From assembly GCA_903837125.1 (NCBI GenBank), contig CAILTG010000021.1, positions 11,627 through 75,626 of the forward strand: a stretch of DNA of 64,000 nucleotides, written 5' to 3'. The stretch is from Candidatus Magasanikiibacteriota bacterium. Lineage in GTDB: Bacteria > Patescibacteriota > Patescibacteriia > Magasanikbacterales > UBA922. This document shows positions 429 through 50,975 of the stretch, one piece after another (positions within the stretch are counted from its first letter, which is position 1; each line of letters opens with the position of its first letter). Under the pieces are notes generated by a model that was given only the letters and a program-made list of their open reading frames with translations, had not been told where the DNA came from and did not search any database. Position numbers and translations under genes: made by a program.

Positions 429-515
429 AACACCAATTAATACTGAACGAAACAAATTAAACAGCTTTATTTCAAATACAATATCTGTCTAAATCAATGC
501 TAAAACAATACAACT

Positions 516-1607: not shown

Positions 1608-1611
1608 ATTT

Positions 1612-1986
1612 ATGAAAACAAATAAAAAAATCCTGATTGTTGAAGACGACCTGTTTACCATTAAACTCTACACTCGACTCTTAAACGACGCTGGTTTTGA
1701 TACCATTAGCACCCCCACAGCTCGAGAAGTGATTGGTTTAGCTAAGAGAGAAAAACCAAATTTAATAATTGTTGATTTAATGTTGGTCGACGGCAATGGC
1801 TTTGAGGTAATTAAGGAAGTTAGATCAACCACTGGCCTCAAGAAAATTCCCATCATAACCCTCTCCAATTTGGGACAAGAAACAGACATCAACGAGGCCA
1901 TTCGCAAAGGCAGTAATAAATACTTTGTTAAAAGCAACACGCGTTTTGAAGAAGTAATAGAAGCAGTAAAAGAATTAATTCAATAA
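1612..1986 (+). CDS. Single-domain response regulator (CheY-like receiver)
   Basis: KKILIVEDDLFTIKLY...IIVDLMLVDGNGFEVIKEVR... receiver signature. Starts 5 nt after the kinase stop, so likely an operon. Confidence 0.85.
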   Translation: MKTNKKILIVEDDLFTIKLYTRLLNDAGFDTISTPTAREVIGLAKREKPNLIIVDLMLVDGNGFEVIKEVRSTTGLKKIPIITLSNLGQETDINEAIRKGSNKYFVKSNTRFEEVIEAVKELIQ

Positions 1987-3924: not shown

Positions 3925-3960
3925 AAAATTTTTATGAATTTTCTATAAAAAACAAATTCA

Positions 3961-10020: not shown

Positions 10021-10056
10021 AAATATAATTTAGAAATAATTAAGTTAAGAATAGCA

Positions 10057-10086
10057 AATTATAGCACAAAAATCACCACTTGTCAA
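10057..10086 (-). promoter_or_regulatory. Near-consensus sigma70 promoter (minus strand) for the secreted-protein gene: TTGACA, 17 nt spacer, TATAAT.
   Basis: Minus-strand sequence cTTGACAagtggtgatttttgtgcTATAATttgc. The -35 overlaps a palindrome GTCAAGGCTTGAC. Confidence 0.5.
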
Positions 10087-10163
10087 GGCTTGACGGTGTA
10101 TAACTTAATTAAAAATAGCTTTGTTTAGCCATTATAACTTCTCATTTCTTACCACCATCAGGT

Positions 10164-11432: not shown

Positions 11433-11440
11433 ACATTATT

Positions 11441-14167: not shown

Positions 14168-14600
14168 TCTTATCTATTGTAGATGATCGCCTGCCGATGA
14201 GGCAGGAGGAAAGTCCGAACTCTATCCATTAATTTGGAAATGGTAGTGGGTAACACCCACCAGCACTTTAGAGATAAAGTGTTCGGGATAGCGCCACAGA
14301 GACAATACTACCCCGCAAAATGCGGGGGAAAGGTGAAAAGTGTATGGGGGTTTTGGTTCTAGATCAAAGCTACTATACTCCTCTAATAGTAATATTGGAG
14401 TGCGGCAAGCCCTACCTGGAGAAAGAGCAGCGCCCCGCAGTTTGCGGGGCGAAAAGTTAGCTCGTTAGAATCTATTGGCAACAATAGATCTAGATAAATG
14501 ATCGTCGCCCACAAATCACAACACCAATCGACACTAATTAGTGAAGATTAGTGAAAATAATAGTGGACACAAAATTCGGCTTATAACAATAGGTGAGACA
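14168..14600 (+). ncRNA. rnpB: RNase P RNA (bacterial type A), with a ~55-nt insertion containing ATTAGTG repeats near the 3' end
   Basis: P3 hairpin CCTGCC-GATGA-GGCAGG. CR-I GAGGAAAGTCCGAAC. P8/9 GGTAGTGGGTAACACCCACC. J11/12 CGCCACAGAGACAAT. P12 CCCCGCAAAATGCGGGGG. GGTGAAAAG. P18 ATCTATTG-GCAA-CAATAGAT followed by CTAGATAAATGA. CR-V ACAAAATTCGGCTTATAAC, whose TTCGGCTT pairs with AAGTCCGAA to form P4. P1/P2 5' tcttatctattgt pairs with 3' acaataggtgaga. Followed by an A/T hairpin terminator. Confidence 0.85.
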
Positions 14601-14647: not shown

Positions 14648-15370
14648 TTACTTTGCCAATTCATCGGCTCTTTTTTCAGCTGATTCTAAAACTTTTTTAA
14701 ACATATTCTCTAAATCAAATTTTTTCATCACTACCAGACCAGCTTCAGTGGTACCACCTTTTGAAGCAACTTGCTTAACTAATTCCTCTGAATTTTTTTC
14801 TTGTTGTAAAATTGAGTTAGCGCCATCAAGTGTTGTAAAAAACATTAATCTGGCTTCTTCTTCAGTGAATCCTAGTTCAACCACCGCTTTTAGCCATTCA
14901 GTAACTAAATAATAAAAAAATCCCGGACCACTACCAGACACGGCTGTGGCTTTATTTATCATTTCTTCATTTTTAACTTGCAAAGTTTGACCAAGTTGTT
15001 TAAACAAATTGTCTATCTCATTTTTGTCTTTCACTCCTTCACTAATCCAAACTGTCATAGACTTTTTAACTCTGGCACCAAGATTAGGCATGGCTCGTAC
15101 CACTTTTTTTATACCCAAAACTGATTTAATTTTATTAATAGTAACACCAGCCATAATTGAAATAACTATTTGTTCGTTCAACTGGCCTTTTAATTCTTCT
15201 GCCACTTCTGCAAATGATTGTGGTTTTACGGCCAACAAAATTATCTCTGCCCCATGACAAACACTTTTATCATCACCTTTATCACAAACAATAACTTCGC
15301 AACTTGAAGCCAAAGCTTTAGCAAAAATACTACCCATTACTCCCCCACCAATGATTACTAATTTTTTCAT
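14648..15370 (-). CDS. proC: Pyrroline-5-carboxylate reductase
   Basis: MKKLVIIGGGVMGSIFAKAL Rossmann N terminus, a P5CR-like body, and operon context directly downstream of proB and proA. Confidence 0.75.
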   Translation of the reverse strand: MKKLVIIGGGVMGSIFAKALASSCEVIVCDKGDDKSVCHGAEIILLAVKPQSFAEVAEELKGQLNEQIVISIMAGVTINKIKSVLGIKKVVRAMPNLGARVKKSMTVWISEGVKDKNEIDNLFKQLGQTLQVKNEEMINKATAVSGSGPGFFYYLVTEWLKAVVELGFTEEEARLMFFTTLDGANSILQQEKNSEELVKQVASKGGTTEAGLVVMKKFDLENMFKKVLESAEKRADELAK

Positions 15371-16428
15371 ACAAATACCATTATATTATCAGCATGCATT
15401 ACTTGCAAGCCTTTTTTAGATTTAGCGACTGACAATAATTTAGAATCAATATCCACTTTACCAATCGCCATACTCACTTTATCTTTATCCACCACTTCCA
15501 CCAGTTCATTAGCAGCAAATTCACCATAAACTTTTTTAATACCCACTGCCAAAAGACTTTTTCCAGAAGCCAAGGCCTTAACAGCCCCATCGTCCACTTC
15601 AATGCTGGCAGCTGAAGTTTTGGAAGCCATGAGCCAACGCTCACGATTTTTAATATCACTAACCGATTTCCTCGACAAAAAAGTAGTACCAACCTTCTTA
15701 CCCATTAAGGCAGCAACAATAAACTCTTTTTTCAAACCACTAATAATTTGCACCTCAATGCCAATTGCTGTACAAAGGCGTGCTGCTTTAAGTTTAGAAA
15801 CCATTCCTCCCCGGCCTTTATCAGAAACAGCTCCTGAACAATATTTCATAAGTTCAGCATTCACATCTTTCACCTCAGAAATCAATTCCGCATTTTTATT
15901 ATCTTCAGGATTTGCAGTAAACAATCCCTCAACATGACTTAAAATTAATAATTTATTGGCTTTAAAAGACATCGCTAAAGATGCCCCCAAACTGTCATTA
16001 TCCCCAAAACTCCAATCCGTACCATACACCAAAGCATCATTTTCATTAACAATGGGGATAATTTTATTTTGAAAAGCGCTCTCAATTGATTTTTGTAGTG
16101 CCAAAAAATGCTGGCGTTCTACCAAATGTGGACGAGATAGTAGCAATTCTGAAACAGTTAAACCCAATTTATTAGCCACTTGGTTATACCCAGACATAAG
16201 TTTTAATTGTCCAATTCCGGCAGCTAATTTTTTATCTAATTCTTTGTCTATAAAAAATTTTCTACCCAAAGCTACTGCTCCAGAAGTTACCAAAACAATT
16301 TTTTGCCCTTGTTTTATTTGTTCACCAACAACCTCCAAAATATTTTCAATAATTGAAATACGTAATTCATTATTATCATCAACCAAAACATTACTCCCGA
16401 TTTTTATTATTGTTATATTATTATCCAT
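15367..16428 (-). CDS. proB: Glutamate 5-kinase (with C-terminal PUA domain)
   Basis: IIKIGSNVLVDDNNELR...VLVTSGAVALGR kinase motifs. 353 aa. Overlaps proC by 4 nt. Confidence 0.85.
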   Translation of the reverse strand: MDNNITIIKIGSNVLVDDNNELRISIIENILEVVGEQIKQGQKIVLVTSGAVALGRKFFIDKELDKKLAAGIGQLKLMSGYNQVANKLGLTVSELLLSRPHLVERQHFLALQKSIESAFQNKIIPIVNENDALVYGTDWSFGDNDSLGASLAMSFKANKLLILSHVEGLFTANPEDNKNAELISEVKDVNAELMKYCSGAVSDKGRGGMVSKLKAARLCTAIGIEVQIISGLKKEFIVAALMGKKVGTTFLSRKSVSDIKNRERWLMASKTSAASIEVDDGAVKALASGKSLLAVGIKKVYGEFAANELVEVVDKDKVSMAIGKVDIDSKLLSVAKSKKGLQVMHADNIMVFV

Positions 16429-16447
16429 ACAATAAACGCTAACAAAT

Positions 16448-17689
16448 TTAATTTCTTACTTGTCCACTACCCAAAACTACATATTTGGTCACGGTTAAAT
16501 CTTCTAAACCCATTGGTCCGCGCATGTGGATTGAGGAAGTACTAATACCCAATTCAGCACCTAAACCAAAGATTCCACCATCATTCAAACGAGTAGACGC
16601 ATTAACCATCACTACCGCGCTATTAACCTGTTTAAGAAACTCTGCTGACTTAATTTTATCTTCCGTAACAATAGAATCAGTATGATGAGAACCATGCTCT
16701 TCTATCCAAATTACCGCCTTTTCAAATGAATCTACCACTCCTACAGTAATTATTAAATCCAAATATTCTGTATTCCAATCTTCAGGCTTGGCCAACACAC
16801 ACTTAGAATTATAAGAACAAATTTTTTCATCTCCTCTCACTTGAACACCCAGTTCAACCAAAGTTGCCAATAAAGTTGGCGCCAATTTATCAACAATATC
16901 ACAATGAATTAAAATCTTTTCTAAAGAATTACAAGCAGCCGGATTGGAAACCTTGGAATTAACAGCCAATTCAACTGCCATGACCAAATTTGCCTCTTTA
17001 TCAATATACAGGTGAGTAAGTCCTCGTTCGTGGGCAATTACCGGCACTCTAGCCTGATCTTTAATAAAATTAATTAATTGTTCACGCCCGCGGGGTACCA
17101 CCAAATCAAGATATTTGTCCATTTTTACCACTTCCCCCAAAGTTTCATAACTTCTGTCTTCCAATTGCTGCACAGTATGCTCTGACAAACCAACTTCTTG
17201 TAAAGCCTTCTGAATAAATTTTAATAAAATTTCATTTGAAAAATTCGCTTCTTTGCCGCCCCTAGCCACCAAACAATTACCACTTTTTACACAAAGTCCG
17301 GCAGCATCCACCAAAACATTTGGTCGAGATTCATAAACAAAAAGAATCACCCCAATCGGCACACGTTTTTTGAGAACTACCATGCCATTAGGTCTACCCC
17401 ACTCTTCAACAATTTTTCCCACAGGATCTGGCAGCTTTATCATTTCTCTCAATCCCTCGGCCATGCCTTTAATTGAACTCTCTGATAAAATCAACCTCTT
17501 AAGCAGGACTAGGTTTAATTCTTTTCCCAAATTAAGATCTTTTTTATTCTCAACCAAAATCGCTTCAATATTTTGCAATAACAATTCAGCTAATTTAGCT
17601 AAAAATAGATTTTTTTGTTCTGTGTCAGCTAAACGCATTTCTGCTGAAGCTGCTTTTGCCAAATGCAACTGCTCTTTTGCTTCCAACAT
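16448..17689 (-). CDS. proA: Gamma-glutamyl phosphate reductase (glutamate-5-semialdehyde dehydrogenase)
   Basis: 413-aa aldehyde-dehydrogenase-family protein with a ProA-like sequence (…VVPRGREQLINFI…, catalytic Cys region). Position upstream of proB. Confidence 0.85.
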   Translation of the reverse strand: MLEAKEQLHLAKAASAEMRLADTEQKNLFLAKLAELLLQNIEAILVENKKDLNLGKELNLVLLKRLILSESSIKGMAEGLREMIKLPDPVGKIVEEWGRPNGMVVLKKRVPIGVILFVYESRPNVLVDAAGLCVKSGNCLVARGGKEANFSNEILLKFIQKALQEVGLSEHTVQQLEDRSYETLGEVVKMDKYLDLVVPRGREQLINFIKDQARVPVIAHERGLTHLYIDKEANLVMAVELAVNSKVSNPAACNSLEKILIHCDIVDKLAPTLLATLVELGVQVRGDEKICSYNSKCVLAKPEDWNTEYLDLIITVGVVDSFEKAVIWIEEHGSHHTDSIVTEDKIKSAEFLKQVNSAVVMVNASTRLNDGGIFGLGAELGISTSSIHMRGPMGLEDLTVTKYVVLGSGQVRN

Positions 17690-19216: not shown

Positions 19217-20896
19217 TTATTTAACAACGGCTACCTCTTTATTTTCTACTTTTTCCATAGACAACAAAACCTCTGCTGACGGTTTAAGAGGAATCCAAAA
19301 CCCAAATTCACTCCCCTTTCCTAAACCAGGACTTTTGGCCCAAACCTTACCGCCATGAGTCTCAATAAATTTTTTACAAACAAACAATCCCAATCCAGTA
19401 CCCGTAACATTTATATCTTTAACATTTTCCCCGCGATAAAATTTAGTAAAAAAACTTACTTCATCTTTTTTATCAAAACCCAAACCTTTATCATTTACCT
19501 TTACTTCAACACCTTCCTCACCTTGTTCAACAGTAATCTTAATTTCACCTTTTTCTGTATATTTAATGGCATTATCCACAAAATTAAATATCACATGTCG
19601 TACTTTTTCGTCATCCATGTTAATTGATAATTTTTTAAATTCTGGCTTCCATTTTAAACTCAAACCTTTATCCTTGGCCCTAGCACTTAATTCTGTAACC
19701 ACACCTTTAATTAATTCCACCATATCATAATCATGAAAAACAAACTTGGTCCGGCCTTGTTCAATTCGACTAACATCCAAAAATTCATCAACCAATTTAA
19801 TCAATCTTTCGTTACTCATATCCATATTATCCAAAGTACCCAACAACTCTTTGCTGGCCTTGCCATAAGCGCCATCTTTAATTAATTCAATATAACCTTT
19901 CAAAATAGATAACGGCGTACGTAATTGATGTGAAGCAATTGATAAAAATTCGGTTTTTTGTTTATCCAAGTCTTGAAGACGAATATTGACGCTTTGAAGT
20001 TCTTTGTAAAGAATTTCTAATTGTTCACGTTGTTTAACCTCCATTATTACACTTTTAATTAACCAAATACCTACACTTAAAACTAAAAGAAAAAGACTGC
20101 TTCTAAATATTACAGTAACTAAATCATTAGACATGACAACTTCAAGTAAAATGGCAACAGATAAAATAAAAGCCAATAATTCAGTAGAAATTATTTTAAT
20201 GTTTAAGAAATTATGTTTAATAATGGAGTATCCAGTAAAAAACACAAAAGGAATAACAAATATTGCACCAAAAGGCACAAAGGACGAATTGTTTAAAAAA
20301 GCTGGAAAAATAAAATTAAATATGATAATCAAAACAAAGGTCATTAGTGTACCCCACAAAATTAAACGCAATGAGCCTTTTTCGGTATTTTTTGAATACC
20401 AAATTTTCTTTAACAAAGAAAAAAGAGCAAACATTACCAAACCAACACTAAAAATTCCGAAAATTCCTATCAAAGGTCCGTTTTCTATATTAACGATACG
20501 CCCTTCAGCACTCACTTTGGAGACATGGCTGAAGACCATTGGAGTAAGAGTTAACAAAGAGACTAAAGCAGTACATGGCAAAAGGCCAAATTTATACCAT
20601 TTTTTATACAAAAATGTAGTCTCTGGAAAAACATAAAATAATTGAAAAATAAAAAAAGCCTGCCAAACAGCTGAAAACATTACTAGTCGCACTATCCAAA
20701 ATGCCCAAAACAAAGAGATACTCTGACCATTTAAATAGTTGACTATCCCCCAGAATGAAGTTACTAATGAAAAAAATAAAAATGTATAACTAGTTGAACT
20801 TTTACGATTACTAAAATAAATAACACAAGCCAATATTATTATTGATGAAATTACCAAACCGACAATAAATAAATTAAGATTTATAAGTGTATTCAT
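19217..20896 (-). CDS. Membrane sensor histidine kinase (multi-TM N-terminal sensor domain)
   Basis: About 7 predicted TM helices. H-box SIASHQLRTPLSIL. HATPase NAIKYT ... GTGLGLFVCKKFIETHGGKVW. Confidence 0.85.
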   Translation of the reverse strand: MNTLINLNLFIVGLVISSIIILACVIYFSNRKSSTSYTFLFFSLVTSFWGIVNYLNGQSISLFWAFWIVRLVMFSAVWQAFFIFQLFYVFPETTFLYKKWYKFGLLPCTALVSLLTLTPMVFSHVSKVSAEGRIVNIENGPLIGIFGIFSVGLVMFALFSLLKKIWYSKNTEKGSLRLILWGTLMTFVLIIIFNFIFPAFLNNSSFVPFGAIFVIPFVFFTGYSIIKHNFLNIKIISTELLAFILSVAILLEVVMSNDLVTVIFRSSLFLLVLSVGIWLIKSVIMEVKQREQLEILYKELQSVNIRLQDLDKQKTEFLSIASHQLRTPLSILKGYIELIKDGAYGKASKELLGTLDNMDMSNERLIKLVDEFLDVSRIEQGRTKFVFHDYDMVELIKGVVTELSARAKDKGLSLKWKPEFKKLSINMDDEKVRHVIFNFVDNAIKYTEKGEIKITVEQGEEGVEVKVNDKGLGFDKKDEVSFFTKFYRGENVKDINVTGTGLGLFVCKKFIETHGGKVWAKSPGLGKGSEFGFWIPLKPSAEVLLSMEKVENKEVAVVK

Positions 20897-20925
20897 GTTA
20901 TTATTATAACACGTTTTATAAAAAA

Positions 20926-21978
20926 TTACTCAAAAATTATTTTTGGTTCCATTTTTGAAGACCTGTCACTTGGTTCTCCACCATAACCAACACGAAAAAG
21001 TAGAGGTATTATTTTATCCTTAGCATTATAAAACTTACAAATAGTGCTATAAGCCATTTTAACTTCTTCAACCTGTTTGACCGTAAAACCTTCTGTTTCT
21101 CCACCCATAATTCTTTGCATAAAAAATAACGCCCCAGTTACTGGATGAAGACTTAAACCCATTTTTGTCGCCTTTAACCAAATTCTCTCAAATAAACGTC
21201 CAGCTTTTACAAAACTCTGAATTGAATTATCATCAATCAAAATTGCTCCAATTACCGCAGATTTAACATAAACCTTTGCATTCTCGTTGGCCACAATTTT
21301 ATGAAAACCCAAATAACTAAAAAATTTCATCACCGGCCAGTGACTAAAAGCCTTAAAAATCGCCGTAACCACAGGGTTCATTTCTAAAGTTTTTACATAC
21401 AAGCCGGTCTTTTTCTCCAATTCTTCCCGTTTGCTCCAAACAGTATGATGAAAAAATATGTTATGCAATTTCTTTACAGTCAAAACTATTTTTTCATTTA
21501 TCCCAGACACTCTAACAATAACACGTTTTTCCTTTTCATCTTCAATTAATTTTAACTCTCCAAAACCAATCTCTTTAACTGCCGACAATAATTCCTCTTT
21601 TTGTTTCCCAGTCAACATTTTATCCTCATAAGGTTTTCGATTAGTACATCTAAGACTAACAAAATCATTAAGTTCATCAATTTCTATGTCTTTTTTAATC
21701 AAATCCAACACAGCCACCAAATTTCTATCGTGCTCGTCAGGAAATAAACTTACATTGGTTTCATAACCATAGCTTGTAGCCACAATTTTAATATTCTCGA
21801 TAATACAACCATGTGCAATATAAGAACCTTTCTGTTCATAATTATAAAAAGGAATATCTCTTTCCGCTAAATTATAAACATAAATTTTATTTTCTCTAAC
21901 CTTAAATTGCCACGGCTGTGAATTATCTCCGGAAGGAGCATTAACAGAAGCTTTAATAATTTCTCCAAAAATATTCAT
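20926..21978 (-). CDS. Two-domain nitroreductase-superfamily protein (SagB/ThcOx-type dehydrogenase-like)
   Basis: N-terminal SAPSGDNSQPW motif typical of nitroreductase / SagB-type FMN oxidoreductases. ~350 aa, consistent with a tandem nitroreductase fold. Confidence 0.55.
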   Translation of the reverse strand: MNIFGEIIKASVNAPSGDNSQPWQFKVRENKIYVYNLAERDIPFYNYEQKGSYIAHGCIIENIKIVATSYGYETNVSLFPDEHDRNLVAVLDLIKKDIEIDELNDFVSLRCTNRKPYEDKMLTGKQKEELLSAVKEIGFGELKLIEDEKEKRVIVRVSGINEKIVLTVKKLHNIFFHHTVWSKREELEKKTGLYVKTLEMNPVVTAIFKAFSHWPVMKFFSYLGFHKIVANENAKVYVKSAVIGAILIDDNSIQSFVKAGRLFERIWLKATKMGLSLHPVTGALFFMQRIMGGETEGFTVKQVEEVKMAYSTICKFYNAKDKIIPLLFRVGYGGEPSDRSSKMEPKIIFE

Positions 21979-21988
21979 ATATTTAAGA

Positions 21989-23143
21989 TTATTTTTTACT
22001 CATGATTTTTATAAATTTTATCGTTTCTTTTAAACGATAAACCTTTTGGCTAAATCTTTTATAATCACTTTCAAATATTTTATCCAAATTAATCTGATAA
22101 CGTCCGGATTTTATTTTTTTTCCATCAACCAAAATTTTTCTGATTAAATAAGCTAGAGCCGTACCACATAAATTTGCCGCCGTACCCAATTGCGGCCAAG
22201 AATACAAAGACTTCCCTACTTCCACTACCGATTGTTGCATTCGTGAGGTAGCCAAAGTTGCCCCCGCAATCTTGGCTGCCACTCTCGGCAGATCTTTAGG
22301 ATCTAAATTTTTGAATTGATCAAGAGAAATATCCCCAGCCAAACCATTAAAAATCTTCTGTTTTTTGTTTGAATCATATCTTTCAATATCCACAAAAATA
22401 TTATCACCATTATCAGTAGCCATTAAGACCGGAATTCTTGCTTCTTGAGCTAAAAATCTAGACTTAAATTTAAAATAAGGATTATCCATTTCTTCAATCA
22501 AAATATCTAATTTCGAATTCAAAATAACTTCATCAATATTTTCCTCAGTCAATCCCTGTAGATAAATTTTAATATTAGCGTAAGGATTAATTTCAAAAAT
22601 TTTTCTGGCTACCGCAACTGTTTTGGGTAAACCTAAATCATTTACACCTATTCTAATACGATTTAAATTAGAACCAGAAATCGAATCAGGATCCACTAAT
22701 ACAAAATTTTTAGCTCCACCAGTCATGGCAATGGTTAAAGCCGCATGACTGCCAACACTCAGACCCAAGACACCAACAGTAGCAGAATAATACTTTTCCT
22801 GTTCTTCTTGGGTAATCAAAAAATGATTGCGACCGGTACGCATTTCAAAATGTAAATTTTCCGGCAAAACATGAACCAAAGTATTTATCCATGGGAAAAA
22901 AAACCAATTTCCCCACTCATCAAACTCCTTACCCTCACGCATTTTATTTACAAACAATTTCTGTTCTTCTTGAAAATTCTTATTAAATCTATATTTTGGA
23001 TTACGCAATAAAAAAATTTCTTCCAGTTGTTCTCTACAAGTATCCACTATCACCAATTCCTTTCTGACGGAAATAAAAGAAGACAGCTGGCTAAAACTCA
23101 ACCAGTTAGGCTGCCACGATTGGCGATCAACTTTTTCTTGCAT
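21989..23143 (-). CDS. ThiF/HesA/MoeB-family E1-like adenylyltransferase with an ~110-aa N-terminal extension
   Basis: Rossmann segment ATVGVLGLSVGSHAALTIAMTGGAKNFVLVDPDSISGSNLNRI, characteristic of E1-like ThiF-family enzymes. Confidence 0.55.
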   Translation of the reverse strand: MQEKVDRQSWQPNWLSFSQLSSFISVRKELVIVDTCREQLEEIFLLRNPKYRFNKNFQEEQKLFVNKMREGKEFDEWGNWFFFPWINTLVHVLPENLHFEMRTGRNHFLITQEEQEKYYSATVGVLGLSVGSHAALTIAMTGGAKNFVLVDPDSISGSNLNRIRIGVNDLGLPKTVAVARKIFEINPYANIKIYLQGLTEENIDEVILNSKLDILIEEMDNPYFKFKSRFLAQEARIPVLMATDNGDNIFVDIERYDSNKKQKIFNGLAGDISLDQFKNLDPKDLPRVAAKIAGATLATSRMQQSVVEVGKSLYSWPQLGTAANLCGTALAYLIRKILVDGKKIKSGRYQINLDKIFESDYKRFSQKVYRLKETIKFIKIMSKK

Positions 23144-23147
23144 ATAT

Positions 23148-24659
23148 CTATTTTTTTACCCATTTCTGTTTTATACCCGACCTAAAATGAGTTAAATCCT
23201 CATAGGGCCAAAATACTATTTTAGGAAATACTTTATGTCCTTTATCCTCATAAGTGCGCCGATATTCAGAATTTTCTTTTAACAACCTATCAAAAACAAT
23301 TTCACCAACCAATTTATGTAAATCACTAGTCTCACTAACCCCAGATTTTAATTCAACATTAATTTCTAAACATTGGTTTAATTTATCATCATCTATTACC
23401 AACATAGTAAACTTACCAGTAATTTTGTCTTCTAAAACATCCTCTTGCAAAGCTCTTCTGACAGTTTCCGGGTAAATATTGAAAGCATAAAAACTAACCG
23501 AAAAATCTGATCTTTCAAACACATAAACAAAAGGTAAATTCCAAACAGTAGAATTTAATTTGGCTTTGCCAATTTCTTGTTCTAATTTTATACCAGAGGC
23601 TAAAAATTTATCCTTAATTTGAGAAAAAGTATACATTCCACCATGATCGTGTAAATCATAGCGAACCAAAGGCAACCCACTATAAGCTGAACATAACAAA
23701 TTCCCTTCTTCATTTTCAAAATAGAACATTTCTGGAAGAAACTGCGTAAGTGTGGGTGTCTTAGTTATATCGCCAAAAATATCCTTATACAATGGCTCCT
23801 TAGCCAACGCCATTCTGCGAATAAGTATTGAAGCTGGCGTTTCATGAGACATAGTTCCTAAATCTACGGTGCCATAATGATTCAGAGTAGTAGTGTAGGG
23901 ATTTTTTAATCCAGTCTTTTTAATTACATAATCGCGAAAATTTTCACTAAAAGCTTCAGCTGAAAATATAAAACCCAAATTATATTTTTTCCAATCCAAA
24001 CCCTGTCTGATTCCATCATCTAATGTATCCTTTAAAAAAGGAGCATAGGAACCAATAATAATCTGATCAAATTTATCTCCAAATTTTTTTACCGCTTTTA
24101 TAATTTCATTTTTATCAATGCTCGTAGTGATAATACTCAAAGGATATTTACCTTCCTCTGCTATGAGCCTAATAGCACTAAAAGTAAAAACCCCCCCAAT
24201 CCACGGACCCATTGGAAAAGCGTCTATATAAAGAGTAGACTTTTTATGAATTTGAAAATTTGTTCTTAAATACATCTCCGCAGTTCTAGCATACTGAAGA
24301 TCTTGTTCCTCTTCTCTAGGAAAATAAAAAGGCTCACCGGTAGAACCTGAAGTTGATGAAATAGTCCAACGCTTATCTTTTAAATTACCATCCCAACACA
24401 ATTTTTCTAAATCATAAATTTTTAAATAATTATGTTTATCAATTTTTGGAAGAAATTTAAAATCTTCTATAGTTTTTATTTTAGCAACAGAAATTTTATT
24501 CTTTTTTAAAAAATCTTTATAAGCAGGCACTCTCTCGGCCATGGAATAAAAAAGACCTAAAGCCATTTTTTGACCTCTTTTTATCCAAAAATCTTCATCT
24601 TCTTTCTTTAATTTTTTCAACAACAATACTGGATCAGTAAAAATTTTAGACAAATACAT
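23148..24659 (-). CDS. Adenylate-forming enzyme of the PaaK / coenzyme F390 synthetase / CapK family
   Basis: Motif TISSTSGSTGEPFYFP (a P-loop-like AMP-binding motif variant of the PaaK family). ~500 aa. Confidence 0.65.
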   Translation of the reverse strand: MYLSKIFTDPVLLLKKLKKEDEDFWIKRGQKMALGLFYSMAERVPAYKDFLKKNKISVAKIKTIEDFKFLPKIDKHNYLKIYDLEKLCWDGNLKDKRWTISSTSGSTGEPFYFPREEEQDLQYARTAEMYLRTNFQIHKKSTLYIDAFPMGPWIGGVFTFSAIRLIAEEGKYPLSIITTSIDKNEIIKAVKKFGDKFDQIIIGSYAPFLKDTLDDGIRQGLDWKKYNLGFIFSAEAFSENFRDYVIKKTGLKNPYTTTLNHYGTVDLGTMSHETPASILIRRMALAKEPLYKDIFGDITKTPTLTQFLPEMFYFENEEGNLLCSAYSGLPLVRYDLHDHGGMYTFSQIKDKFLASGIKLEQEIGKAKLNSTVWNLPFVYVFERSDFSVSFYAFNIYPETVRRALQEDVLEDKITGKFTMLVIDDDKLNQCLEINVELKSGVSETSDLHKLVGEIVFDRLLKENSEYRRTYEDKGHKVFPKIVFWPYEDLTHFRSGIKQKWVKK

Positions 24660-24665
24660 AATTCA

Positions 24666-25736
24666 TTATAAATACGAAGAGATAATATTTTCTGCTATTT
24701 CATCGGCTAAAATGTTGGGGGCTTTATTTTTTTCCTTTGATTCAGTAAAAATCATATCCAAACTGGCAGCAATATTATCAATTTTTTTAATAATTCTACT
24801 TTTGTCATGCTCCTCATTCTCATATTGGTCCACCACGCTCATAATACCCGCCCCATTAATAATAAAATCCGGTGCGTAAAGTATGCCTCTTTTATGTAAT
24901 AATTCACCCGTTTTTGGCTCATCAAGTTGATTATTAGCTGAACCGGCAATAATTTTACACTTTAATTGTGGCACCTTGCCACTGGTAATAGCATGGCTTA
25001 AAGCGCAAGGACAATACACGTCAACATCTTGTAAATATATTTTTAAAGGACTAATAATTTGTACTTTAGGAAACCTTAATTTTGCTAACCATGCTCTATG
25101 AGCATTAATATCTGTAACATAGATTTTGTCAGCTTTTTCCTTCATTAAAAATTTAAGCAACGGCCACCCAGTCTTACCCAAACCCTGAATCGCAAAACTG
25201 TGGCCAGCAATGTCTGTACTACCATAAATATGTTTTAAAGCCACTTTTATGCCTGCCAAAACCCCTATAGCCGTAAAATAACCTGAGTCTACTCCTGTAC
25301 CAATCATAAAAGAACTTTCAGAGTGCATAATATCCAAGTCCTTATTAGTTACACCTACGTCAGTGCCAGTCACAAACGCACCCATCAATTCATTTACCTT
25401 TTGAGCATAAACCTTAAATAACTGCTTGCGATTTGCCTGAGCCGTAGAATTATCAATTAAAGCAGCCTTTGCACCAGTATATGGCAGACCGGCTAAAGCT
25501 GACTTATAAGACATTAAACGTGAAAGACGCAAAGCATCACGCAAAGCCTCATGTTCATTTTGGTAATTCCAAATTCTGGTGGCACCCAAAGCAGGAAATT
25601 GCTTACGATTACGATGTATAGCTATATAGCCTTTTAAACCCACACTTTCATCTTCAACTTTAACCACTTTGTAGTGATTGTCATATTCTGGAAACATTTC
25701 TAAATCCTCCTTGGATAAGATTTTAGTTTCACTCAT
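24666..25736 (-). CDS. Amino-acid dehydrogenase of the Glu/Leu/Phe/Val dehydrogenase family (Leu/Val/Phe-DH-like)
   Basis: …LPYTGAKAAL… catalytic-lysine region and …AIQGLGKTGWPLL… NAD-binding GxGxxG. 356 aa. Confidence 0.7.
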   Translation of the reverse strand: MSETKILSKEDLEMFPEYDNHYKVVKVEDESVGLKGYIAIHRNRKQFPALGATRIWNYQNEHEALRDALRLSRLMSYKSALAGLPYTGAKAALIDNSTAQANRKQLFKVYAQKVNELMGAFVTGTDVGVTNKDLDIMHSESSFMIGTGVDSGYFTAIGVLAGIKVALKHIYGSTDIAGHSFAIQGLGKTGWPLLKFLMKEKADKIYVTDINAHRAWLAKLRFPKVQIISPLKIYLQDVDVYCPCALSHAITSGKVPQLKCKIIAGSANNQLDEPKTGELLHKRGILYAPDFIINGAGIMSVVDQYENEEHDKSRIIKKIDNIAASLDMIFTESKEKNKAPNILADEIAENIISSYL

Positions 25737-26830
25737 ACATTTTTGATATCAAGTGTTCCCACTACATCATTGATATTATTATACCCATCCTTATTTAAAA
25801 GCTTAATTAATTCTTTATTTATTTTTTTTATAACCAAGGGCCCGCCATAAATCCACCCAGTAATCAGTTGTACGGCTGTGGCTCCAGCCTTTATCTTAGC
25901 ATAAGCATCGTCAGCCGTAAATATTCCACCAACTCCGATTATTTTTAATTTTCCTGCTGAACGCTGGTAAACATAACTGATTATCTCGTTACTCTTATCT
26001 TTTAAGAGAGCGCCAGATATACCACCAGAATGAGTTAGTTCCTCTGGATTGGATTTAAATTTAACTCCACTCCGATCTTTAATAAGATTAGAGATTACTA
26101 AACCAGTAATTTTATTGGCCAAACAAGTTTCAATAACTTCGTCTAATTCCTGATGACTGAAATGCGGACCAATTTTAAAATATATATCTTTTTTTATATT
26201 TTCCAAATCCATCTTCTGTCTCACGGCTTCAGCTAATTCTTTAATAAAAGAAACTTGAGCAAACTGCTCACAACTAGCTACATTCGGACAACTCACATTT
26301 AAAGTCACATAATCTGCAAATTGTTGCAGTGCTAAAAAGGTTTTAAGATAATCTTCAGTCATTTTTGCTAATTCTAAGCTTGTGGTAGGAGCAATACTAA
26401 TTCCCAAAGGTACAGCATGTTTTAAGCCAGCTAATTCTTGAATAGTTTTTTCTGCTCCAGCATTGCTTAAACCATAATTTACGATTAAACCATTATCTTT
26501 TGGTATGCGCCATAAACGCGGCTTAGGATTGCCTGATTGTTCCTCATAAGTAATAGAACCTAATTCAGCAAAGCCAAAACCAATCATGGAATAAGCCAAA
26601 GGCGCGTCTATATATTTATCAAAACCAGCGGCCAAGCCAATAGGATTTTCTAATTTCCAACTTCCTAAATGCACTTTTAATTTTTCACTGCCTAATTTAA
26701 AAAACTTTGACAATAACCAATTAAAAATTTTAATTCTGCTTACCAAACCCAAACCTTTAGCCACTATTACATGAATTTTTTCTGGATCAATCTTAAAAAA
26801 TAAAGGGCGTATTATATATTTATAAAACAT
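25733..26830 (-). CDS. pyrD: Dihydroorotate dehydrogenase, class 2 (quinone-dependent, membrane-associated)
   Basis: NPIGLAAGFDKYIDAPLAYSMIGFGFAELGSITYEEQSGNPKPRLWRIP....IVNYGLSNAG aligns closely with E. coli PyrD, including the class-2 N-terminal extension. Confidence 0.85.
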   Translation of the reverse strand: MFYKYIIRPLFFKIDPEKIHVIVAKGLGLVSRIKIFNWLLSKFFKLGSEKLKVHLGSWKLENPIGLAAGFDKYIDAPLAYSMIGFGFAELGSITYEEQSGNPKPRLWRIPKDNGLIVNYGLSNAGAEKTIQELAGLKHAVPLGISIAPTTSLELAKMTEDYLKTFLALQQFADYVTLNVSCPNVASCEQFAQVSFIKELAEAVRQKMDLENIKKDIYFKIGPHFSHQELDEVIETCLANKITGLVISNLIKDRSGVKFKSNPEELTHSGGISGALLKDKSNEIISYVYQRSAGKLKIIGVGGIFTADDAYAKIKAGATAVQLITGWIYGGPLVIKKINKELIKLLNKDGYNNINDVVGTLDIKNV

Positions 26831-26833
26831 ACT

Positions 26834-27328
26834 TTAAAAATCAGCCACATGGTATTCATGCATTAGATAAATATCGGAAATTAACATAATAATTGAAAGC
26901 AATAAAGAACCAAGACAATAACTACAAAGAAAACCAATCAAAGCTATCTGTACATAAAGTAACCATAAAGAAAACAAAACTGCCACAGTGGCTAAGACTA
27001 GAAGCAGAACCAAAACTTCTGCTAAATTTTTTTTATACAAAAGATAAGAAAATATTAAAGACAAACATAAATAATAAACCAACCCCAAAACCGCCACTGG
27101 TACATGCCAAATTGCGGCATACTGGCTACTGCCAACTTTTCCGCAATTTATGATTCCGCCATGCAAGGGACAAACATCACTGGGATGATAGTATTCATAG
27201 GTGAGAAAACTGGCATCAAACATTCCTAAAATTCCAATTAACAAACCAAGCACTAAAAACCACTTTGGCAAAGTTTTTTTCCAATGTTTTTCTTTAATAT
27301 AATTTACCAATTTGGTATATATGGCCAT
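26834..27328 (-). CDS. Vitamin K epoxide reductase (VKOR)-family membrane protein
   Basis: Loop CPLHGGIINCGKVGSSQYA (Cys pair plus S.Y) and a TM CxxC (LCSYCLG). 4-5 TM helices. The ATG is at 27328; the ORF track uses an upstream TTG. Confidence 0.5.
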   Translation of the reverse strand: MAIYTKLVNYIKEKHWKKTLPKWFLVLGLLIGILGMFDASFLTYEYYHPSDVCPLHGGIINCGKVGSSQYAAIWHVPVAVLGLVYYLCLSLIFSYLLYKKNLAEVLVLLLVLATVAVLFSLWLLYVQIALIGFLCSYCLGSLLLSIIMLISDIYLMHEYHVADF

Positions 27329-27337
27329 AATCAATAA

Positions 27338-27372
27338 TCGTTAATTTATTATTAGTGCGTATTAGTGCGTAA
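27338..27372. repeat. Short direct repeats ATTAGTGCGT x2 plus ATTAGTGG, intergenic
   Basis: attattagtgcgtattagtgcgtaaattagtgg. The same ATTAGTG unit recurs inside the rnpB insertion (14538-14570). Confidence 0.8.
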
Positions 27373-27381
27373 ATTAGTGGT

Positions 27382-29070
27382 CTACATTTCTTCAACTGTT
27401 TCTATACCCAACAAATCTAACCCTTTTTCCATAGTTTCTTTAACCTTTTTTATTAATTGAAAACGAAAATTAAGAACAGTTTCCTCCGCCCCCAAAACTG
27501 GACAGGTTTGATAAAAATTATTAAAAGCTTGCGCTAAATCAAACAAATATCTAGCAATCTGTGAAGGGTCCTCGGAGTCTGTGGCTATTTTAATTGTCTC
27601 TTCAAACTTTAATAATTCTAACAAAAGTTTCTTTTCTACCGGCTCAACTGAATTTGAAATTTGAAATTTGAAATTTGAAATTTTTGATTTTTTCAATATG
27701 CTGTTGATGCGAGCTACAATATAAAGCAAATAAGGCCCACTACTACCCGTTAAAGAAATAGCTTCATTTACATCAAACACAATGTCATTTTCAGTGCCAG
27801 TTTTTAAAATAAAATATTTAACCGCGGCCACAGCTATTTTAGCAATTACTTTATCCTTATCTTTTATTTTACGAGCCAACATTACTTCGGCAATCTTTTT
27901 TTCAGCTTCGTCAAGCAGCCACTCAGCCAAAACTACATTTCCCGTACGCGAACTCATTTTACCTTCTTTTAAACTCACCCAACCATAAACCAAATGTTCC
28001 TCCCTACCTTTGCTTTCAGGCAGAGTGAATTCCAAGGCTTTAAAAATAACTTTAAAATATTCAGTCTGTTCTTTGGCCACGACATGTAAAATTCTAGCTG
28101 GATTATATTCTTTAAATTGCATTCGAGCCAAGGCCTGGTCTTTGGCTTCATAAGTTGGCAAGCCTTTGCTGTTGATAAACACTCGGTCGTGCAGACCATA
28201 TTTACTTCCTTCAAAAATGACCGCTCCTTCGCTTTTCTTAAAAATTCCACTCTTTATACCTTCTATAACAATTTTTTTACCTAATTCAAAAGTTTCTGAT
28301 TCAAAATACAAACGATCAAACTTTTTAATGCCTACTCTTTTATAAATATAATCAAAATAATCCAAACTCCATTTTCTGGTTTTTTTATACAACCCAACCA
28401 AAGATTTATCTTTACTATAAATCTTGGCATTCAAAGCTTCAATTTCTTTTTTTACCTGCTCGCTACTCTCAAAAGCTTTACCCCCATTAGCATACACCAC
28501 CCCCAAAAATTTTGCTCGTTCACTGGTGGTTTTTAATTTTGAAATTTCTGTCTGATAATTTGGAACCTGTAAAATTCCCCACAAACACTTGGCAATATGC
28601 ATACCCACATCTCCCTGATAATTTGCACGCACTACCCTATGACCTTGATTTTCAAACAATCTCACCATGCTCTCGCCAGTAGTCATGGTGCGTAAATGTC
28701 CAATATGCACCGGCTTGTGAGTATTAGGATGAGCAAACTCCACCATGATCTTTTCCTTTTTTTTGATTATTTTTTGTTTTTTTTCTGATAAAACAATTTT
28801 TGCTAATTCTTGTGCGTTCAAATAAAAATTTGCATACGGCCCGATTGCTTCAATTTTTTCTATCAATCCACCAGTTTCCAAGTTTTTTAATTTCTCAACA
28901 ATTTCTCTGGCACAATCCAGCGGACTTTTCTTCCATTCTTTTGCTAAACCAAAACAGGCAAATGCCAAATCACCCATTTCTGGATTTGGTGGAATCGTAA
29001 AATTTACCAGACCAGTAACTCCTGCTTTTTTTAATAATCTTTCTATTTCAATTTTTATTTGTTCCAACAT
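27382..29070 (-). CDS. argS: Arginyl-tRNA synthetase
   Basis: Class I HIGH motif AHPNTHKPVHIGHLR and a C-terminal DALR anticodon-binding domain. Contains the in-frame (AATTTGA)x4+ repeat at 27652-27688, encoding KISNFKFQISN in the linker before the DALR domain. Confidence 0.9.
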   Translation of the reverse strand: MLEQIKIEIERLLKKAGVTGLVNFTIPPNPEMGDLAFACFGLAKEWKKSPLDCAREIVEKLKNLETGGLIEKIEAIGPYANFYLNAQELAKIVLSEKKQKIIKKKEKIMVEFAHPNTHKPVHIGHLRTMTTGESMVRLFENQGHRVVRANYQGDVGMHIAKCLWGILQVPNYQTEISKLKTTSERAKFLGVVYANGGKAFESSEQVKKEIEALNAKIYSKDKSLVGLYKKTRKWSLDYFDYIYKRVGIKKFDRLYFESETFELGKKIVIEGIKSGIFKKSEGAVIFEGSKYGLHDRVFINSKGLPTYEAKDQALARMQFKEYNPARILHVVAKEQTEYFKVIFKALEFTLPESKGREEHLVYGWVSLKEGKMSSRTGNVVLAEWLLDEAEKKIAEVMLARKIKDKDKVIAKIAVAAVKYFILKTGTENDIVFDVNEAISLTGSSGPYLLYIVARINSILKKSKISNFKFQISNSVEPVEKKLLLELLKFEETIKIATDSEDPSQIARYLFDLAQAFNNFYQTCPVLGAEETVLNFRFQLIKKVKETMEKGLDLLGIETVEEM

Positions 29071-29073
29071 AAA

Positions 29074-29760
29074 TTATAAATTTGTATTATTTAACTTGTG
29101 TTCCCAATAAGCTCCTATAAAAACAACTATTGCTAATAACAACGCAAAATGACACAAAACCGAAGGGAACATAATATTAAAATAAGGAAAAATTACCATT
29201 AAGATAAAAGTCGGCAATGACATTAGCAGTACAGCCACCGGTAACATAAGAAAAACTTTTCTTTTTTTATTATTTTTTTCAGAAAAATAATATTTAAGGG
29301 CGATAAAACAAGCAAAAATTGTAACCAACGCATAATAAGTTACATAGGCTAACCATAAGACAAAATTATAATCTTGACTGAAAATATATCTCGCCGTTAC
29401 AAAAATTGCATTACACTGTCCTACTTGTACAAAATTTGTAGTAAAAATAGCAATCAAAGAATACACCACCGGAAAAAAATACAATAAAAGTCTATGTCTT
29501 TTTATTTTAAAATAAGTTAGTGTCATATCCAAACCCATAGCTGGCAAAAAACTATAAGTTATAAACCCTGCCCTTACCCAAAGTTCGGCATTACCGGTTT
29601 TACATAACATGAATTCAGTAAACTGATAAAAGCCCAACAAAAATAATAATAAAGCAAAAAAATATTTTAAACTAGCCTTGGGAAATTTCCAAGGCATGAT
29701 GATTGATAGCCCGAGTTCAATTACGGCCGTTGTTAGAGAAACAGTTGAATTAAAACACAT
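29074..29760 (-). CDS. Hypothetical polytopic membrane protein (6-7 TM helices)
   Basis: Hydrophobic 228-aa ORF tightly packed between argS and tyrS. No motif recognised. Confidence 0.45.
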   Translation of the reverse strand: MCFNSTVSLTTAVIELGLSIIMPWKFPKASLKYFFALLLFLLGFYQFTEFMLCKTGNAELWVRAGFITYSFLPAMGLDMTLTYFKIKRHRLLLYFFPVVYSLIAIFTTNFVQVGQCNAIFVTARYIFSQDYNFVLWLAYVTYYALVTIFACFIALKYYFSEKNNKKRKVFLMLPVAVLLMSLPTFILMVIFPYFNIMFPSVLCHFALLLAIVVFIGAYWEHKLNNTNL

Positions 29761-36498: not shown

Positions 36499-38073
36499 TT
36501 AAATCAATGCTCTCCCCGTCATCTCCGGCGGTTGTTCCAATTCCATTAATTTTAACATGGTAGACGCCACATCAGCCAACATGCCTACTGGTGGTATTAA
36601 ACTTAAATCACCCTCTGGTGGATCGCCAGCTGGACCGGCCTGACCTTTATATTTATTACCAATAATCAAAAATGGCACTGGATTATTACTATGTTCTTTT
36701 AATTTTTCTCCGGTCTGTAAATTAATTTTTTCTTCAGCATTACCATGGTCAGCCGTAATCAAAAGTAATCCATCTTTGGCCAATATATGATCACTTAATT
36801 TACCCAAACATTTGTCAATAACTTCCACGGCCTTAATAGTAGCGGCCAAATTACCGGTGTGACCTACCATATCCGCATTGGCGAAATTTATCATAATAGC
36901 GTCATAAATATCTGCTTCAATAGCTTTAATCACTTCTTTAGTAATTTCGTTTGCCGACATCTCTGGCACTTGATCATAAGAAGAAACATTAGCTGAAGGA
37001 ACAATTTTTCTTTCCTCTCCAGGGAAAGGATCTTCTATAGTGCCATTTAAAAAATAAGTAATGTGAGCATATTTGGTAGTTTCTGCCACATGAAATTGTT
37101 TAAGTCCAGCACGGCTAATTACTTCGGCCAAAGAATTGTGAACTACTTGTGGTAAATATGCGGGAACAGCCGGCAATTCTTTTTCATATTCGGACATGGT
37201 AACAAAAAACAAATTTCGCAAATAATTTCTTTCAAATTTAGCAAAACCTGGCAACACAAAAGCTTGAGTCAGTTCTCGAGCACGATCAGGACGTGAATTA
37301 AAAAAAATCGCCGCATCCCCATCTTTTACCACAGCTACTGGTTTGCCTTTTTTACCAATTACCACTGGCACAAATTCTTCATCATAAACTTTTTTGGCAT
37401 AAGAATCTTCAATGGCCTTTAAAGGATCACTGTAATAATCTATTGCCTCGCCCTCGGCCATAGCCCGATAAGCTTTCTCTGTTCTATCCCAACGATTATC
37501 ACGATCCATGGCGTAAAAACGTCCGGAAACCGTGGCAATTTCTCCGCACTTATACTCTTTAATTTTTTCCTGTAAACTTTTAACAAAACCCAAACCACTG
37601 TTATACATTACATCTCGCCCATCGATAATAACATGAAGATAAACATCCTTAATTTTCTGCTCTTTAGCAAATCTCAAAAGCGCTTCACAATGTTTTTCAC
37701 CAGCATGCACATTACCCGGACCGATAATCCCTATTAAATGCAAGGCTGATTTATTTTTCTTTACCTGTTCTGCTGCTTTCAAAAAAGCTTTATTTTGAAA
37801 AAAAGATTGGTCAGCAATTGCCTTATCAATTCTAGGAATTGTTTGATAATAAACACGACCCGCGCCAATGTTAAGATGACCTACTTCGGAATTACCTACC
37901 TTACCAAACATGAGTCCCACTTCTTGACCAGCGGCGTAAAGAGTCATGGCTGGATACTCACGCAAAAATTTATTGTAGTTTGGCAAAACAGCGCGAGTAA
38001 TAGCATTACCATCGCTTTTAGGAGCCACACCCCAACCGTCAAGAATAACTAATACTACAGGCCTGTTTTTCAT
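36499..38073 (-). CDS. gpmI: 2,3-bisphosphoglycerate-independent phosphoglycerate mutase (iPGM)
   Basis: VVLVILDGWGVAP ... GNSEVGHLNIGAGRVYYQ ... C-terminal ADHGNAE motifs. Confidence 0.88.
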   Translation of the reverse strand: MKNRPVVLVILDGWGVAPKSDGNAITRAVLPNYNKFLREYPAMTLYAAGQEVGLMFGKVGNSEVGHLNIGAGRVYYQTIPRIDKAIADQSFFQNKAFLKAAEQVKKNKSALHLIGIIGPGNVHAGEKHCEALLRFAKEQKIKDVYLHVIIDGRDVMYNSGLGFVKSLQEKIKEYKCGEIATVSGRFYAMDRDNRWDRTEKAYRAMAEGEAIDYYSDPLKAIEDSYAKKVYDEEFVPVVIGKKGKPVAVVKDGDAAIFFNSRPDRARELTQAFVLPGFAKFERNYLRNLFFVTMSEYEKELPAVPAYLPQVVHNSLAEVISRAGLKQFHVAETTKYAHITYFLNGTIEDPFPGEERKIVPSANVSSYDQVPEMSANEITKEVIKAIEADIYDAIMINFANADMVGHTGNLAATIKAVEVIDKCLGKLSDHILAKDGLLLITADHGNAEEKINLQTGEKLKEHSNNPVPFLIIGNKYKGQAGPAGDPPEGDLSLIPPVGMLADVASTMLKLMELEQPPEMTGRALI

Positions 38074-38081
38074 AATTTATT

Positions 38082-39635: not shown

Positions 39636-39744
39636 AATATTTTCTTTTTGTATATTAGTGACAGTATTATAGCGCAAAATGATTACAAGTTCAATTACCA
39701 GATAACAAATAACAAACTGTGTAATAGATCAAAAAATTATCCTC

Positions 39745-50964: not shown

Positions 50965-50975
50965 AATTAAATTAT

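Follow-up and report, generated by a model that had tools for sequence, protein, structure and literature searches.

Introduction

Enzymes of the VKOR and DsbB families, which are non-homologous analogues, are said in work by Bader (1999), Dutton (2008) and Li (2010) to transfer electrons from thiols to quinone. In bacterial systems such as Synechococcus VKOR-Trx (3KP9), M. tuberculosis VKOR/DsbA, E. coli DsbB-DsbA and B. subtilis BdbC-BdbD, the enzyme works with a thioredoxin-fold partner and the quinol is re-oxidised by the respiratory chain. Here, we analysed a stretch of DNA of 64,000 nucleotides (the window) from a Candidatus Magasanikiibacteriota bacterium, in which the neighbour of a VKOR-family gene is instead pyrD, the gene of a dihydroorotate dehydrogenase (DHODH), and whose host belongs to the Candidate Phyla Radiation (CPR), where a respiratory chain is reportedly lacking. 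The same kind of pairing was found in separate lineages and, in some relatives of this VKOR, as a single polypeptide.

The second member of the pair also has well-described relatives. Class 2 DHODHs such as E. coli PyrD (1F76) and human DHODH (1D3G) combine a TIM barrel with an N-terminal helical domain of about 40 residues, which provides quinone tunnel and membrane anchor, and carry a Ser as catalytic base together with Asn145-Arg146 and Tyr356 in human numbering. The class 1A enzyme PyrDA of L. lactis (1DOR) is without the N-terminal membrane domain and has a Cys base in an 'N-x-S-C-P-N-V' loop. Sousa et al., who surveyed class 2 sequences, reportedly list some in which the base is not a Ser. 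Among fungi, the class II enzymes SjUra9, DbUra9 and ArUra9 have a Cys at the base position and support respiration-independent pyrimidine synthesis (Bouwknegt et al. 2021, PMC8520639); the Cys was required in one of them, free flavins were used by one and fumarase mutations adapted one (PMC8520639).

Much of microbial diversity belongs to CPR bacteria and DPANN archaea. The prevailing view is that they have neither respiratory chains nor quinone synthesis, yet many of them encode enzymes annotated as quinone-dependent. CPR bacteria generally lack electron-transport chains and quinone synthesis (PMC7507113, PMC8407418), and ubiquinol oxidase operons have been described in CPR genomes that are devoid of genes for quinone biosynthesis (PMC8407418). 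We found no literature that links PyrD with VKOR or DsbB, or that discusses PyrD in Patescibacteria. As far as sequences can tell, each part belongs to a known family, and what is new here is a distinct group of PyrDs whose genes are linked to, or in some cases fused with, those of disulfide-forming quinone enzymes, in lineages that have no respiratory chain.

Results

PyrD has a class 2 scaffold and a cysteine base of the class 1 kind

The lineage is Patescibacteria/CPR. The window has a GC content of about 34% and a gene content typical of CPR, and both the nearest PyrD homologs (50-67% identity) and the loci in synteny carry the name of Ca. Magasanikbacteria or Patescibacteria, in agreement with the CPR assignment made in an earlier note on this DNA.

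The same note had called PyrD clearly class 2, a statement that holds for fold, tunnel domain and family-model cut-offs and fails at the catalytic base. PyrD matches Pfam DHO_dh at 226 bits and exceeds both class 2 models (NF003652 'quinone-dependent DHODH', 338 bits with a cut-off of 267; TIGR01036, 281 with a cut-off of 200), as do the PyrDs of the homologous loci L015, L048 and L095 at the class 2 cut-offs (L-numbers denote homologous PyrD/VKOR loci compared with the window, P-numbers homologous VKOR proteins). It falls far below the class 1 cut-offs (NF002702, 92 bits versus 301; TIGR01037, 112 versus 270), and it scores 68-70 bits to class 1A structures versus 178 to class 2. An AlphaFold model (pLDDT 91) places N-terminal helices at residues 2-11, 16-32 and 34-44 (pLDDT 74-94), and Foldseek matched this model only to class 2 DHODHs, at full length and with TM 0.86-0.89, the human and M. 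tuberculosis enzymes among them. The TIM barrel and the N-terminal helical domain are thus common to PyrD, 1F76 and 1D3G, whereas 1DOR has no such domain. Tunnel residues are kept as well: His20 and Arg108, invariant in the clade, correspond to His56 and Arg136 of human DHODH, and the residue numbered Phe98 in the human enzyme is also conserved. The orotate- and flavin mononucleotide (FMN)-binding residues Lys72, Asn178, Asn183, Lys219 and Asn248 are conserved and lie at human positions Lys100, Asn212, Asn217, Lys255 and Asn284; the human Asn145 position of this set holds Val117.

When PyrD is aligned with human DHODH, Cys181 in the motif 'NVSCPN' takes the place of the catalytic base, compared with Ser215 in the human and Ser175 in the E. 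coli enzyme, and this loop is shared with L. lactis PyrDA. Val117-Asn118 replace human Asn145-Arg146, with the Asn shifted by one position (Val-Asn/Tyr across the clade), and Ile323 stands in place of Tyr356. With a Cys base, as in class 1, and with these two changes at sites that class 2 otherwise conserves, PyrD of the window departs from the textbook class 2 enzyme. The Cys is found in 115 of 115 aligned PyrDs of the Magasanikbacteria-like clade and in 120 of 120 homologs of the PyrD of L015, a Peregrinibacteria locus; most of the latter have the Val and the Ile too, and Gracilibacteria, Minisyncoccia and Woesearchaeota are among the names of their sources. In all, it is conserved across about 240 CPR/DPANN homologs. 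Three PyrD types were distinguished in 107 loci: the canonical Asn-Arg/Ser/Tyr (41), Asn-Arg/Cys/Tyr (25, including flavobacterial Snuella) and a CPR/DPANN type (about 40), whose signature of Val or Ile, then Cys, then Ile, Val, Phe or Met separates cleanly from the other two. Judged by these residues, the CPR/DPANN PyrD is a distinct subfamily that joins a class 2 scaffold to a class 1 catalytic Cys. Quinone is its predicted acceptor, and for thousands of sequences the automatic label 'quinone-dependent dihydroorotate dehydrogenase' may be inaccurate in its details.

This type differs from canonical class 2 DHODHs also in its setting, as it occurs in lineages reported to be without electron-transport chains and is found paired or fused with VKOR or DsbB. 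A published parallel is given by the fungal Ura9 enzymes, which likewise combine a class 2 scaffold with a Cys, belong to an oxygen-free lifestyle and give hints of fumarate or free flavins replacing the respiratory quinone pool (PMC8520639). They are eukaryotic and of independent origin, however, no VKOR/DsbB partner or fusion has been reported for them, and ArUra9 lost the N-terminal domain that the CPR type keeps.

The partner is a VKOR-family protein

The upstream gene encodes a VKOR-like protein with a loop Cys pair and a CxxC motif in a transmembrane (TM) helix, as the earlier note had proposed; open reading frames (ORFs), Pfam, alignment and structure model all agree on this. The protein matches PF07884 at 80.2 bits, with a gathering threshold of 27.5, and in an alignment with Synechococcus VKOR (4nv6/3kp9) the catalytic residues of that enzyme are matched by the loop pair Cys53/Cys62, by Ser68 and by Cys135-Ser-Tyr-Cys138. 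These Cys and Ser residues are invariant among the relatives (alignments A2 and A3). The AlphaFold model is a four-TM bundle (pLDDT 76) whose top 14 PDB matches in Foldseek are all VKORs (TMq 0.62-0.69), with Cys135-x-x-Cys138 at the outer end of TM4 and Cys53/Cys62 in the outer loop; both termini, of which the N-terminal one is rich in Lys, are predicted to lie in the cytoplasm, and the cysteines to face outward. Four-helix core, loop Cys pair, Ser and CxxC are thus common to this protein and the VKOR and DsbB systems named above, and thiol-to-quinone electron transfer is predicted for it.

What sets the locus apart is the partner. Pfam searches on ORFs of at least 100 amino acids, tblastn with a DsbA-like protein and a CxxC scan detected no Trx- or DsbA-like partner in the window; here and in L095 and L048 the neighbour is PyrD instead. 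A distant, actinobacterial-like VKOR (P0132; L033/34) sits in an ordinary DsbA-VKOR operon.

The pairing recurs on separate branches

Is the neighbourhood of VKOR and PyrD a peculiarity of this window? A scan of a genome collection with the single PyrD sequence, using highly specific patterns, gave 19 loci, and altogether 115 fetched loci were scanned with a VKOR hidden Markov model, a filter for small multi-TM CxxC proteins and phmmer, with candidates confirmed by Pfam and NCBIfam. In L095 a CPR-type PyrD is followed by VKOR (47 bits); in L048 DsbB (44 bits) precedes a CPR-type PyrD; and on the complete Ca. Peregrinibacteria chromosome L015 a DsbA-like gene and DsbB (Pfam 52.5 bits; BdbC-type model NF002849, 147 bits versus 124) lie divergent from a CPR-type PyrD. 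For L115, a Gracilibacteria locus with a PyrD 72% identical to that of L015, the divergent DsbA-DsbB pair was predicted beforehand and then found. The four VKOR/DsbB-PyrD arrangements fall on separate branches of the PyrD tree (the PyrD and VKOR trees are neighbour-joining only).

Counted by lineage, the pairing is present in 7 of 35 lineages with the CPR-type PyrD versus 0 of 67 loci with a canonical PyrD (Fisher p = 3.6e-4). These control loci were mostly distant class 2 enzymes among the listed matches of a metagenome scan with the PyrD alignment, and DsbB was detected in them by motif filter and phmmer, not by Pfam. In a genome of 1000 genes, four such immediate adjacencies would arise independently by chance with a probability of about 5e-7.

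In the neighbourhoods examined, no pyr genes and no PyrK-like subunits were found beside CPR-type PyrD. An anaerobic ribonucleotide reductase gene, nrdD, adjoins it in L011 (11111-13231; NF006126, 1071 bits), L013 (11118-13232) and L109 (9193-11517), and lies about 2.9 kb away in L048 (9533-11809, minus strand), which points to anoxic life and to a link with nucleotide metabolism. Other neighbours are pyruvate kinase, phosphoglycerate-mutase-like, release factor (RF), MscL, TspO, SPFH and DM13 proteins, among others; in L036, the DM13 'electron transfer' domain is part of a protein with one TM helix, encoded directly 3' of PyrD (2518-3063). The surroundings of the L095 pair (326-5197) have a sulfur/thiol flavour, with an ArsR-type regulator, PyrD, VKOR, a TauE/SafE sulfite-exporter family protein, an FmdE-domain protein and an ArsP permease; TauE is likewise a neighbour of PyrD in L079, there of the canonical type. 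At 9638-11468 (minus strand) of L115, a membrane flavocytochrome of the NOX/ferric-reductase type (Ferric_reduct, FAD_binding_8 and NAD_binding_1) and a cupredoxin are encoded 3 kb from DsbA-DsbB-PyrD, and L015 has the cupredoxin too.

VKOR fused to a PyrD-like domain

A word-indexed search with the VKOR of the window returned 3 close homologs only, whereas exhaustive HMMER gave 2177 relatives. Among the best 150 cluster representatives of these (50%-identity clusters), at least seven clusters carry a PyrD-like domain directly after TM4 of VKOR, at the end where VKOR of the Synechococcus type has a periplasmic thioredoxin domain. P0307, P0322 and P0410 are full length (488-516 aa), and P0406, P0352, P0293 and P0377 are partial. 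When the two proteins of the window are concatenated, they are colinear with the three full-length fusions at 31-35% identity, with 5 extra residues at the junction. Every VKOR cysteine is retained in the fusions, as is the signature of the CPR-type PyrD, residues 145-504 of P0322 match E. coli PyrD (1F76) from residue 6 (E = 2e-34), and on the VKOR tree the fusions are scattered among unfused VKORs.

A variable slot between ArgRS and PyrD

The VKOR-PyrD adjacency is conserved by descent only in the three closest lineages. The order arginyl-tRNA synthetase (ArgRS)-VKOR-PyrD is that of the window (L007/8 are identical), of L004 (PyrD 67% identical) and of L005/6 (63%), and the 3-nt spacing between VKOR and PyrD is kept in L004 and L005 despite 30-35% protein divergence. 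Around it, the clade keeps a backbone of ValRS-TyrRS-ArgRS-PyrD ... HisK-bactofilin-DAGK. ArgRS-PyrD synteny is present in L001, L002, L012, L028, L029, L031 and L044, and the comparison gives ArgRS-PyrD as the ancestral order of the clade, with VKOR inserted between the two in the window.

The slot is empty in L001, L002, L012 and L029. In L028 (1858-3165) and L031 (8695-9999) it holds, directly upstream of PyrD and thus in the place of VKOR, an aspartate ammonia-lyase/class II fumarase-like gene (490 and 400 bits, just under the cut-offs); the slot of L031 contains extra genes as well, and the region 3' of PyrD is also variable. Aspartate ammonia-lyase and fumarase both make fumarate, the acceptor of the Cys-base class 1A DHODHs, and these neighbours in sister lineages are a possible counterpart to the fumarate use of class 1A.

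Discussion

We consider it probable that VKOR and PyrD are functionally coupled, with a membrane quinone as by far the likeliest link, because the pairing recurs with VKOR or DsbB in four separate arrangements and as fusions and is found at none of the 67 canonical loci. The earlier view that the linkage is functional and not accidental is supported by the same recurrence. Less can be said for the path that had been suggested with it, a relay from PyrD through quinone to VKOR. Both class 2 DHODH and VKOR reduce quinone, so a simple relay contradicts the known direction of the two enzymes and would need either a reversed VKOR or another exit for the electrons. Approximate potentials are -250 mV for orotate/dihydroorotate, -120 mV for a DsbA-type disulfide, -74 mV for menaquinone and +30 mV for fumarate/succinate. 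PyrD running backwards, with orotate accepting the electrons of VKOR, was rejected thermodynamically on the first of these values.

Where could the electrons go? Our preferred explanation, tentative as a whole, is that the two proteins form a redox module around one membrane quinone which both of them use, with electrons exiting to fumarate at PyrD; the pair of the window would be the split, operon form of what are elsewhere single VKOR-PyrD-like polypeptides. Where there is no respiratory chain, the two housekeeping quinone reductases would use a small, probably scavenged and possibly protein-bound quinone. PyrD would oxidise dihydroorotate at the inner face of the membrane and VKOR the thiols of exported proteins at the outer face, and the electrons from both would leave through the FMN and the class 1A-like Cys site of PyrD to fumarate, yielding succinate. 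In anaerobic E. coli, fumarate reductase serves DsbB, and PyrD would take this role here. The topology fits, as in the fusions the predicted cytoplasmic C-terminus of VKOR would run into the membrane-surface helices of PyrD. Taken by itself, fumarate as the exit through the Cys site is possible, if questionable; we favour it because it would account for the Cys base, for the aspartase/fumarase-like gene in the slot, for the NrdD neighbours and for the fungal precedent.

Several observations speak against this explanation. The co-occurrence of VKOR and pyrD raised by the earlier note holds as independent recurrence and not by descent beyond three lineages, since in at least 12 other Magasanikbacteria-like lineages no VKOR lies within 8-10 kb of PyrD; by the standard that the note set for its own idea, this part of the result counts against it. 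Adjacency is found in just 7 of the 35 lineages, and most CPR-type PyrD genes have unrelated neighbours; moreover, L048 (57% GC) and L095 were grouped with them by PyrD type, not by organism name. Every fused PyrD-like domain has GFDY for GFDK and GNFSG for GG[LIV]SG, whereas the conserved Lys of GFDK is kept by every unfused CPR-type PyrD, including that of the window. Because this Lys is lost, the fused domains may not be dihydroorotate dehydrogenases and are imperfect proxies for PyrD of the window; they are a derived subfamily, whose substrate may have changed. Energetically, the flavin of characterised DHODHs lies at about -250 mV and menaquinol at about -74 mV, so that electrons would have to climb steeply from the quinol to the flavin, unless this subfamily has a flavin of altered potential. 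For the aspartase-like neighbour another role is conceivable, namely to provide the aspartate from which pyrimidines are made.

Family-model scans of the 64-kb window, the part of the genome that was inspected, found no men/ubi, oxidase, fumarate reductase or other pyr genes. A UbiE-like methyltransferase (60138-60689, minus strand, 183 aa) was considered as a remnant of quinone synthesis and rejected, as UbiE/MenG models give 30-44 bits versus cut-offs of 158-420; its product is a generic S-adenosylmethionine methyltransferase (MTase), and its synteny is kept in relatives (DAGK ... MTase-UPF0102-NDK).

Among the alternatives, VKOR and PyrD as independent users of one scavenged quinone pool survive best, although we think this unlikely. 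The two genes would be co-located since both are useless without quinone, and the quinol would be re-oxidised by traces of O2, by an oxidase elsewhere in the genome or by a host chain via membrane contact. The catalytic residues of the two proteins seem to be in place, as do the features of their quinone sites, PyrD remains at its ancestral ArgRS-linked site next to a variable slot, and the ubiquinol oxidase operons described in CPR genomes without quinone biosynthesis genes (PMC8407418) would suit such a mode of life. A shared cofactor, however, poorly explains why PyrD is repeatedly juxtaposed with two non-homologous thiol oxidases, and still less why it is covalently fused; it also leaves unexplained the Cys/Val/Ile signature of exactly the PyrD type that is paired, and the anaerobic NrdD neighbours argue against reliance on O2.

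A VKOR or DsbB running in reverse is, in our estimate, distinctly unlikely. Electrons would pass from dihydroorotate through FMN and quinone to the cysteines of VKOR and on to an extracytoplasmic disulfide, so that pyrimidine synthesis would dump its electrons outside. This direction is forced by electron balance if PyrD and VKOR alone touch the quinone, and from dihydroorotate/orotate to DsbA-type disulfides it is downhill overall on the potentials given above. The fusions place the PyrD tunnel beside TM4 of VKOR, and L095 ties PyrD-VKOR to an ArsR-type regulator and a TauE/SafE exporter of sulfur compounds. Yet we know of no VKOR or DsbB that runs physiologically in the reducing direction, and the step from quinol to disulfide is uphill for menaquinone. 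By our estimate about 10^6 acceptor disulfides would be needed per generation, with no such acceptor evident, and the Cys base and the aspartase/fumarase-like neighbours would be left unexplained.

That VKOR landed in a recombination-prone ArgRS-PyrD slot without any functional tie is very improbable, for although the slot and the 3' region are variable and close homologs of this VKOR are rare, a neutral accident would have to produce four independent VKOR/DsbB adjacency types, the L115 pair found as predicted, seven fusion clusters and a spacing that outlasted protein divergence, against the chance probability given above.

In the widest reading, VKOR or DsbB and the Cys-type PyrD would constitute a self-contained minimal electron-transport chain in CPR and DPANN. 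A single scavenged quinone would sit between an outer thiol oxidase and an inner flavoprotein, linking extracellular disulfides to dihydroorotate/orotate or fumarate/succinate without any respiratory complex, and the fused Lys-less domain would be a dedicated quinol-oxidising or quinone-reducing partner of VKOR. We regard this general form as rather doubtful. Nevertheless, the pairing suggests a testable module, which would account for both pyrimidine synthesis and the oxidation of exported cysteines in very small fermentative cells, and for its biochemistry the natural fusions are ready-made constructs.

Locus layout and other features of the window

The coordinates of the pair and of the genes that flank it are collected in Table 1.

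Table 1. Genes and spacer at the VKOR-PyrD locus, in window positions
Feature	Position	Strand	Remarks
VKOR-family membrane thiol:quinone oxidoreductase (predicted)	26834..27328	-	164 aa from ATG; TTG at 27334 gives 166 aa
Spacer, VKOR stop (TAA) to PyrD ATG	26831..26833	-	3 nt; natural fusions are continuous at this point
PyrD, class 2 fold with N-terminal quinone-tunnel domain	25733..26830	-	365 aa; family models, alignment, structure model
Arginyl-tRNA synthetase (ArgRS)	27382..29070	-	Pfam; synteny anchor, outside the VKOR-PyrD module
Four packed genes 3' of PyrD	20926..25736	-	ELFV-type amino-acid dehydrogenase, PaaK/F390-like ligase, ThiF-like E1, nitroreductase-like FMN protein

A promoter and terminator scan of 20500-29500 gave counts near shuffled expectation, with no terminator between ArgRS, VKOR and PyrD. 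The 53-nt intergenic region between ArgRS and VKOR contains a perfect tandem direct repeat, ACGCACTAAT x2, at 27351-27370 (minus strand).

The four genes downstream lie between PyrD and HisK, and since the first of them overlaps the PyrD stop by 4 nt, they are probably co-transcribed with PyrD. The same cluster is found 3' of PyrD in L028, L035 and L044 and partly in L029, and is absent in L001, L002, L012 and L031; it is an accessory set in a variable slot and at most a candidate member of the VKOR-PyrD module. Its ELFV-type dehydrogenase has the tryptophan dehydrogenase ScyB as best match, below the cut-off, while the ThiF-like E1 corresponds to the N-terminal half of the Rv1355c family and the nitroreductase-like/Acg-family FMN protein to the C-terminal half. 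The cluster may encode an amino-acid-derived modification pathway.

On the other side, between TyrRS and ArgRS, a 228-aa seven-TM protein (29074-29760, minus strand) matches only the N-terminal membrane region of histidine kinases (HisKA_7TM) and is without a kinase domain; a full-length HisKA_7TM kinase is encoded at 19217-20896. Two giant surface-type proteins of 1378 aa (three Laminin_G_3 domains) and 2633 aa (RHS-repeat/CARDB/DUF6531) occupy 46388-59470 (minus strand), and the larger one, followed by a 195-aa ORF, resembles a polymorphic toxin with a possible immunity gene. The proC-proB-proA proline biosynthesis operon (14648-17689, minus strand) and a glutamine synthetase gene (61668-63050, minus strand) indicate that some amino-acid biosynthesis is retained by this CPR genome. 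RNase P RNA was found at 14171-14599 (plus strand, 173 bits), and at 36499-39677 (minus strand) two phosphoglycerate mutases of the cofactor-independent type, 524 and 531 aa long, are encoded in tandem as paralogs, a duplication also present in L029/L030.

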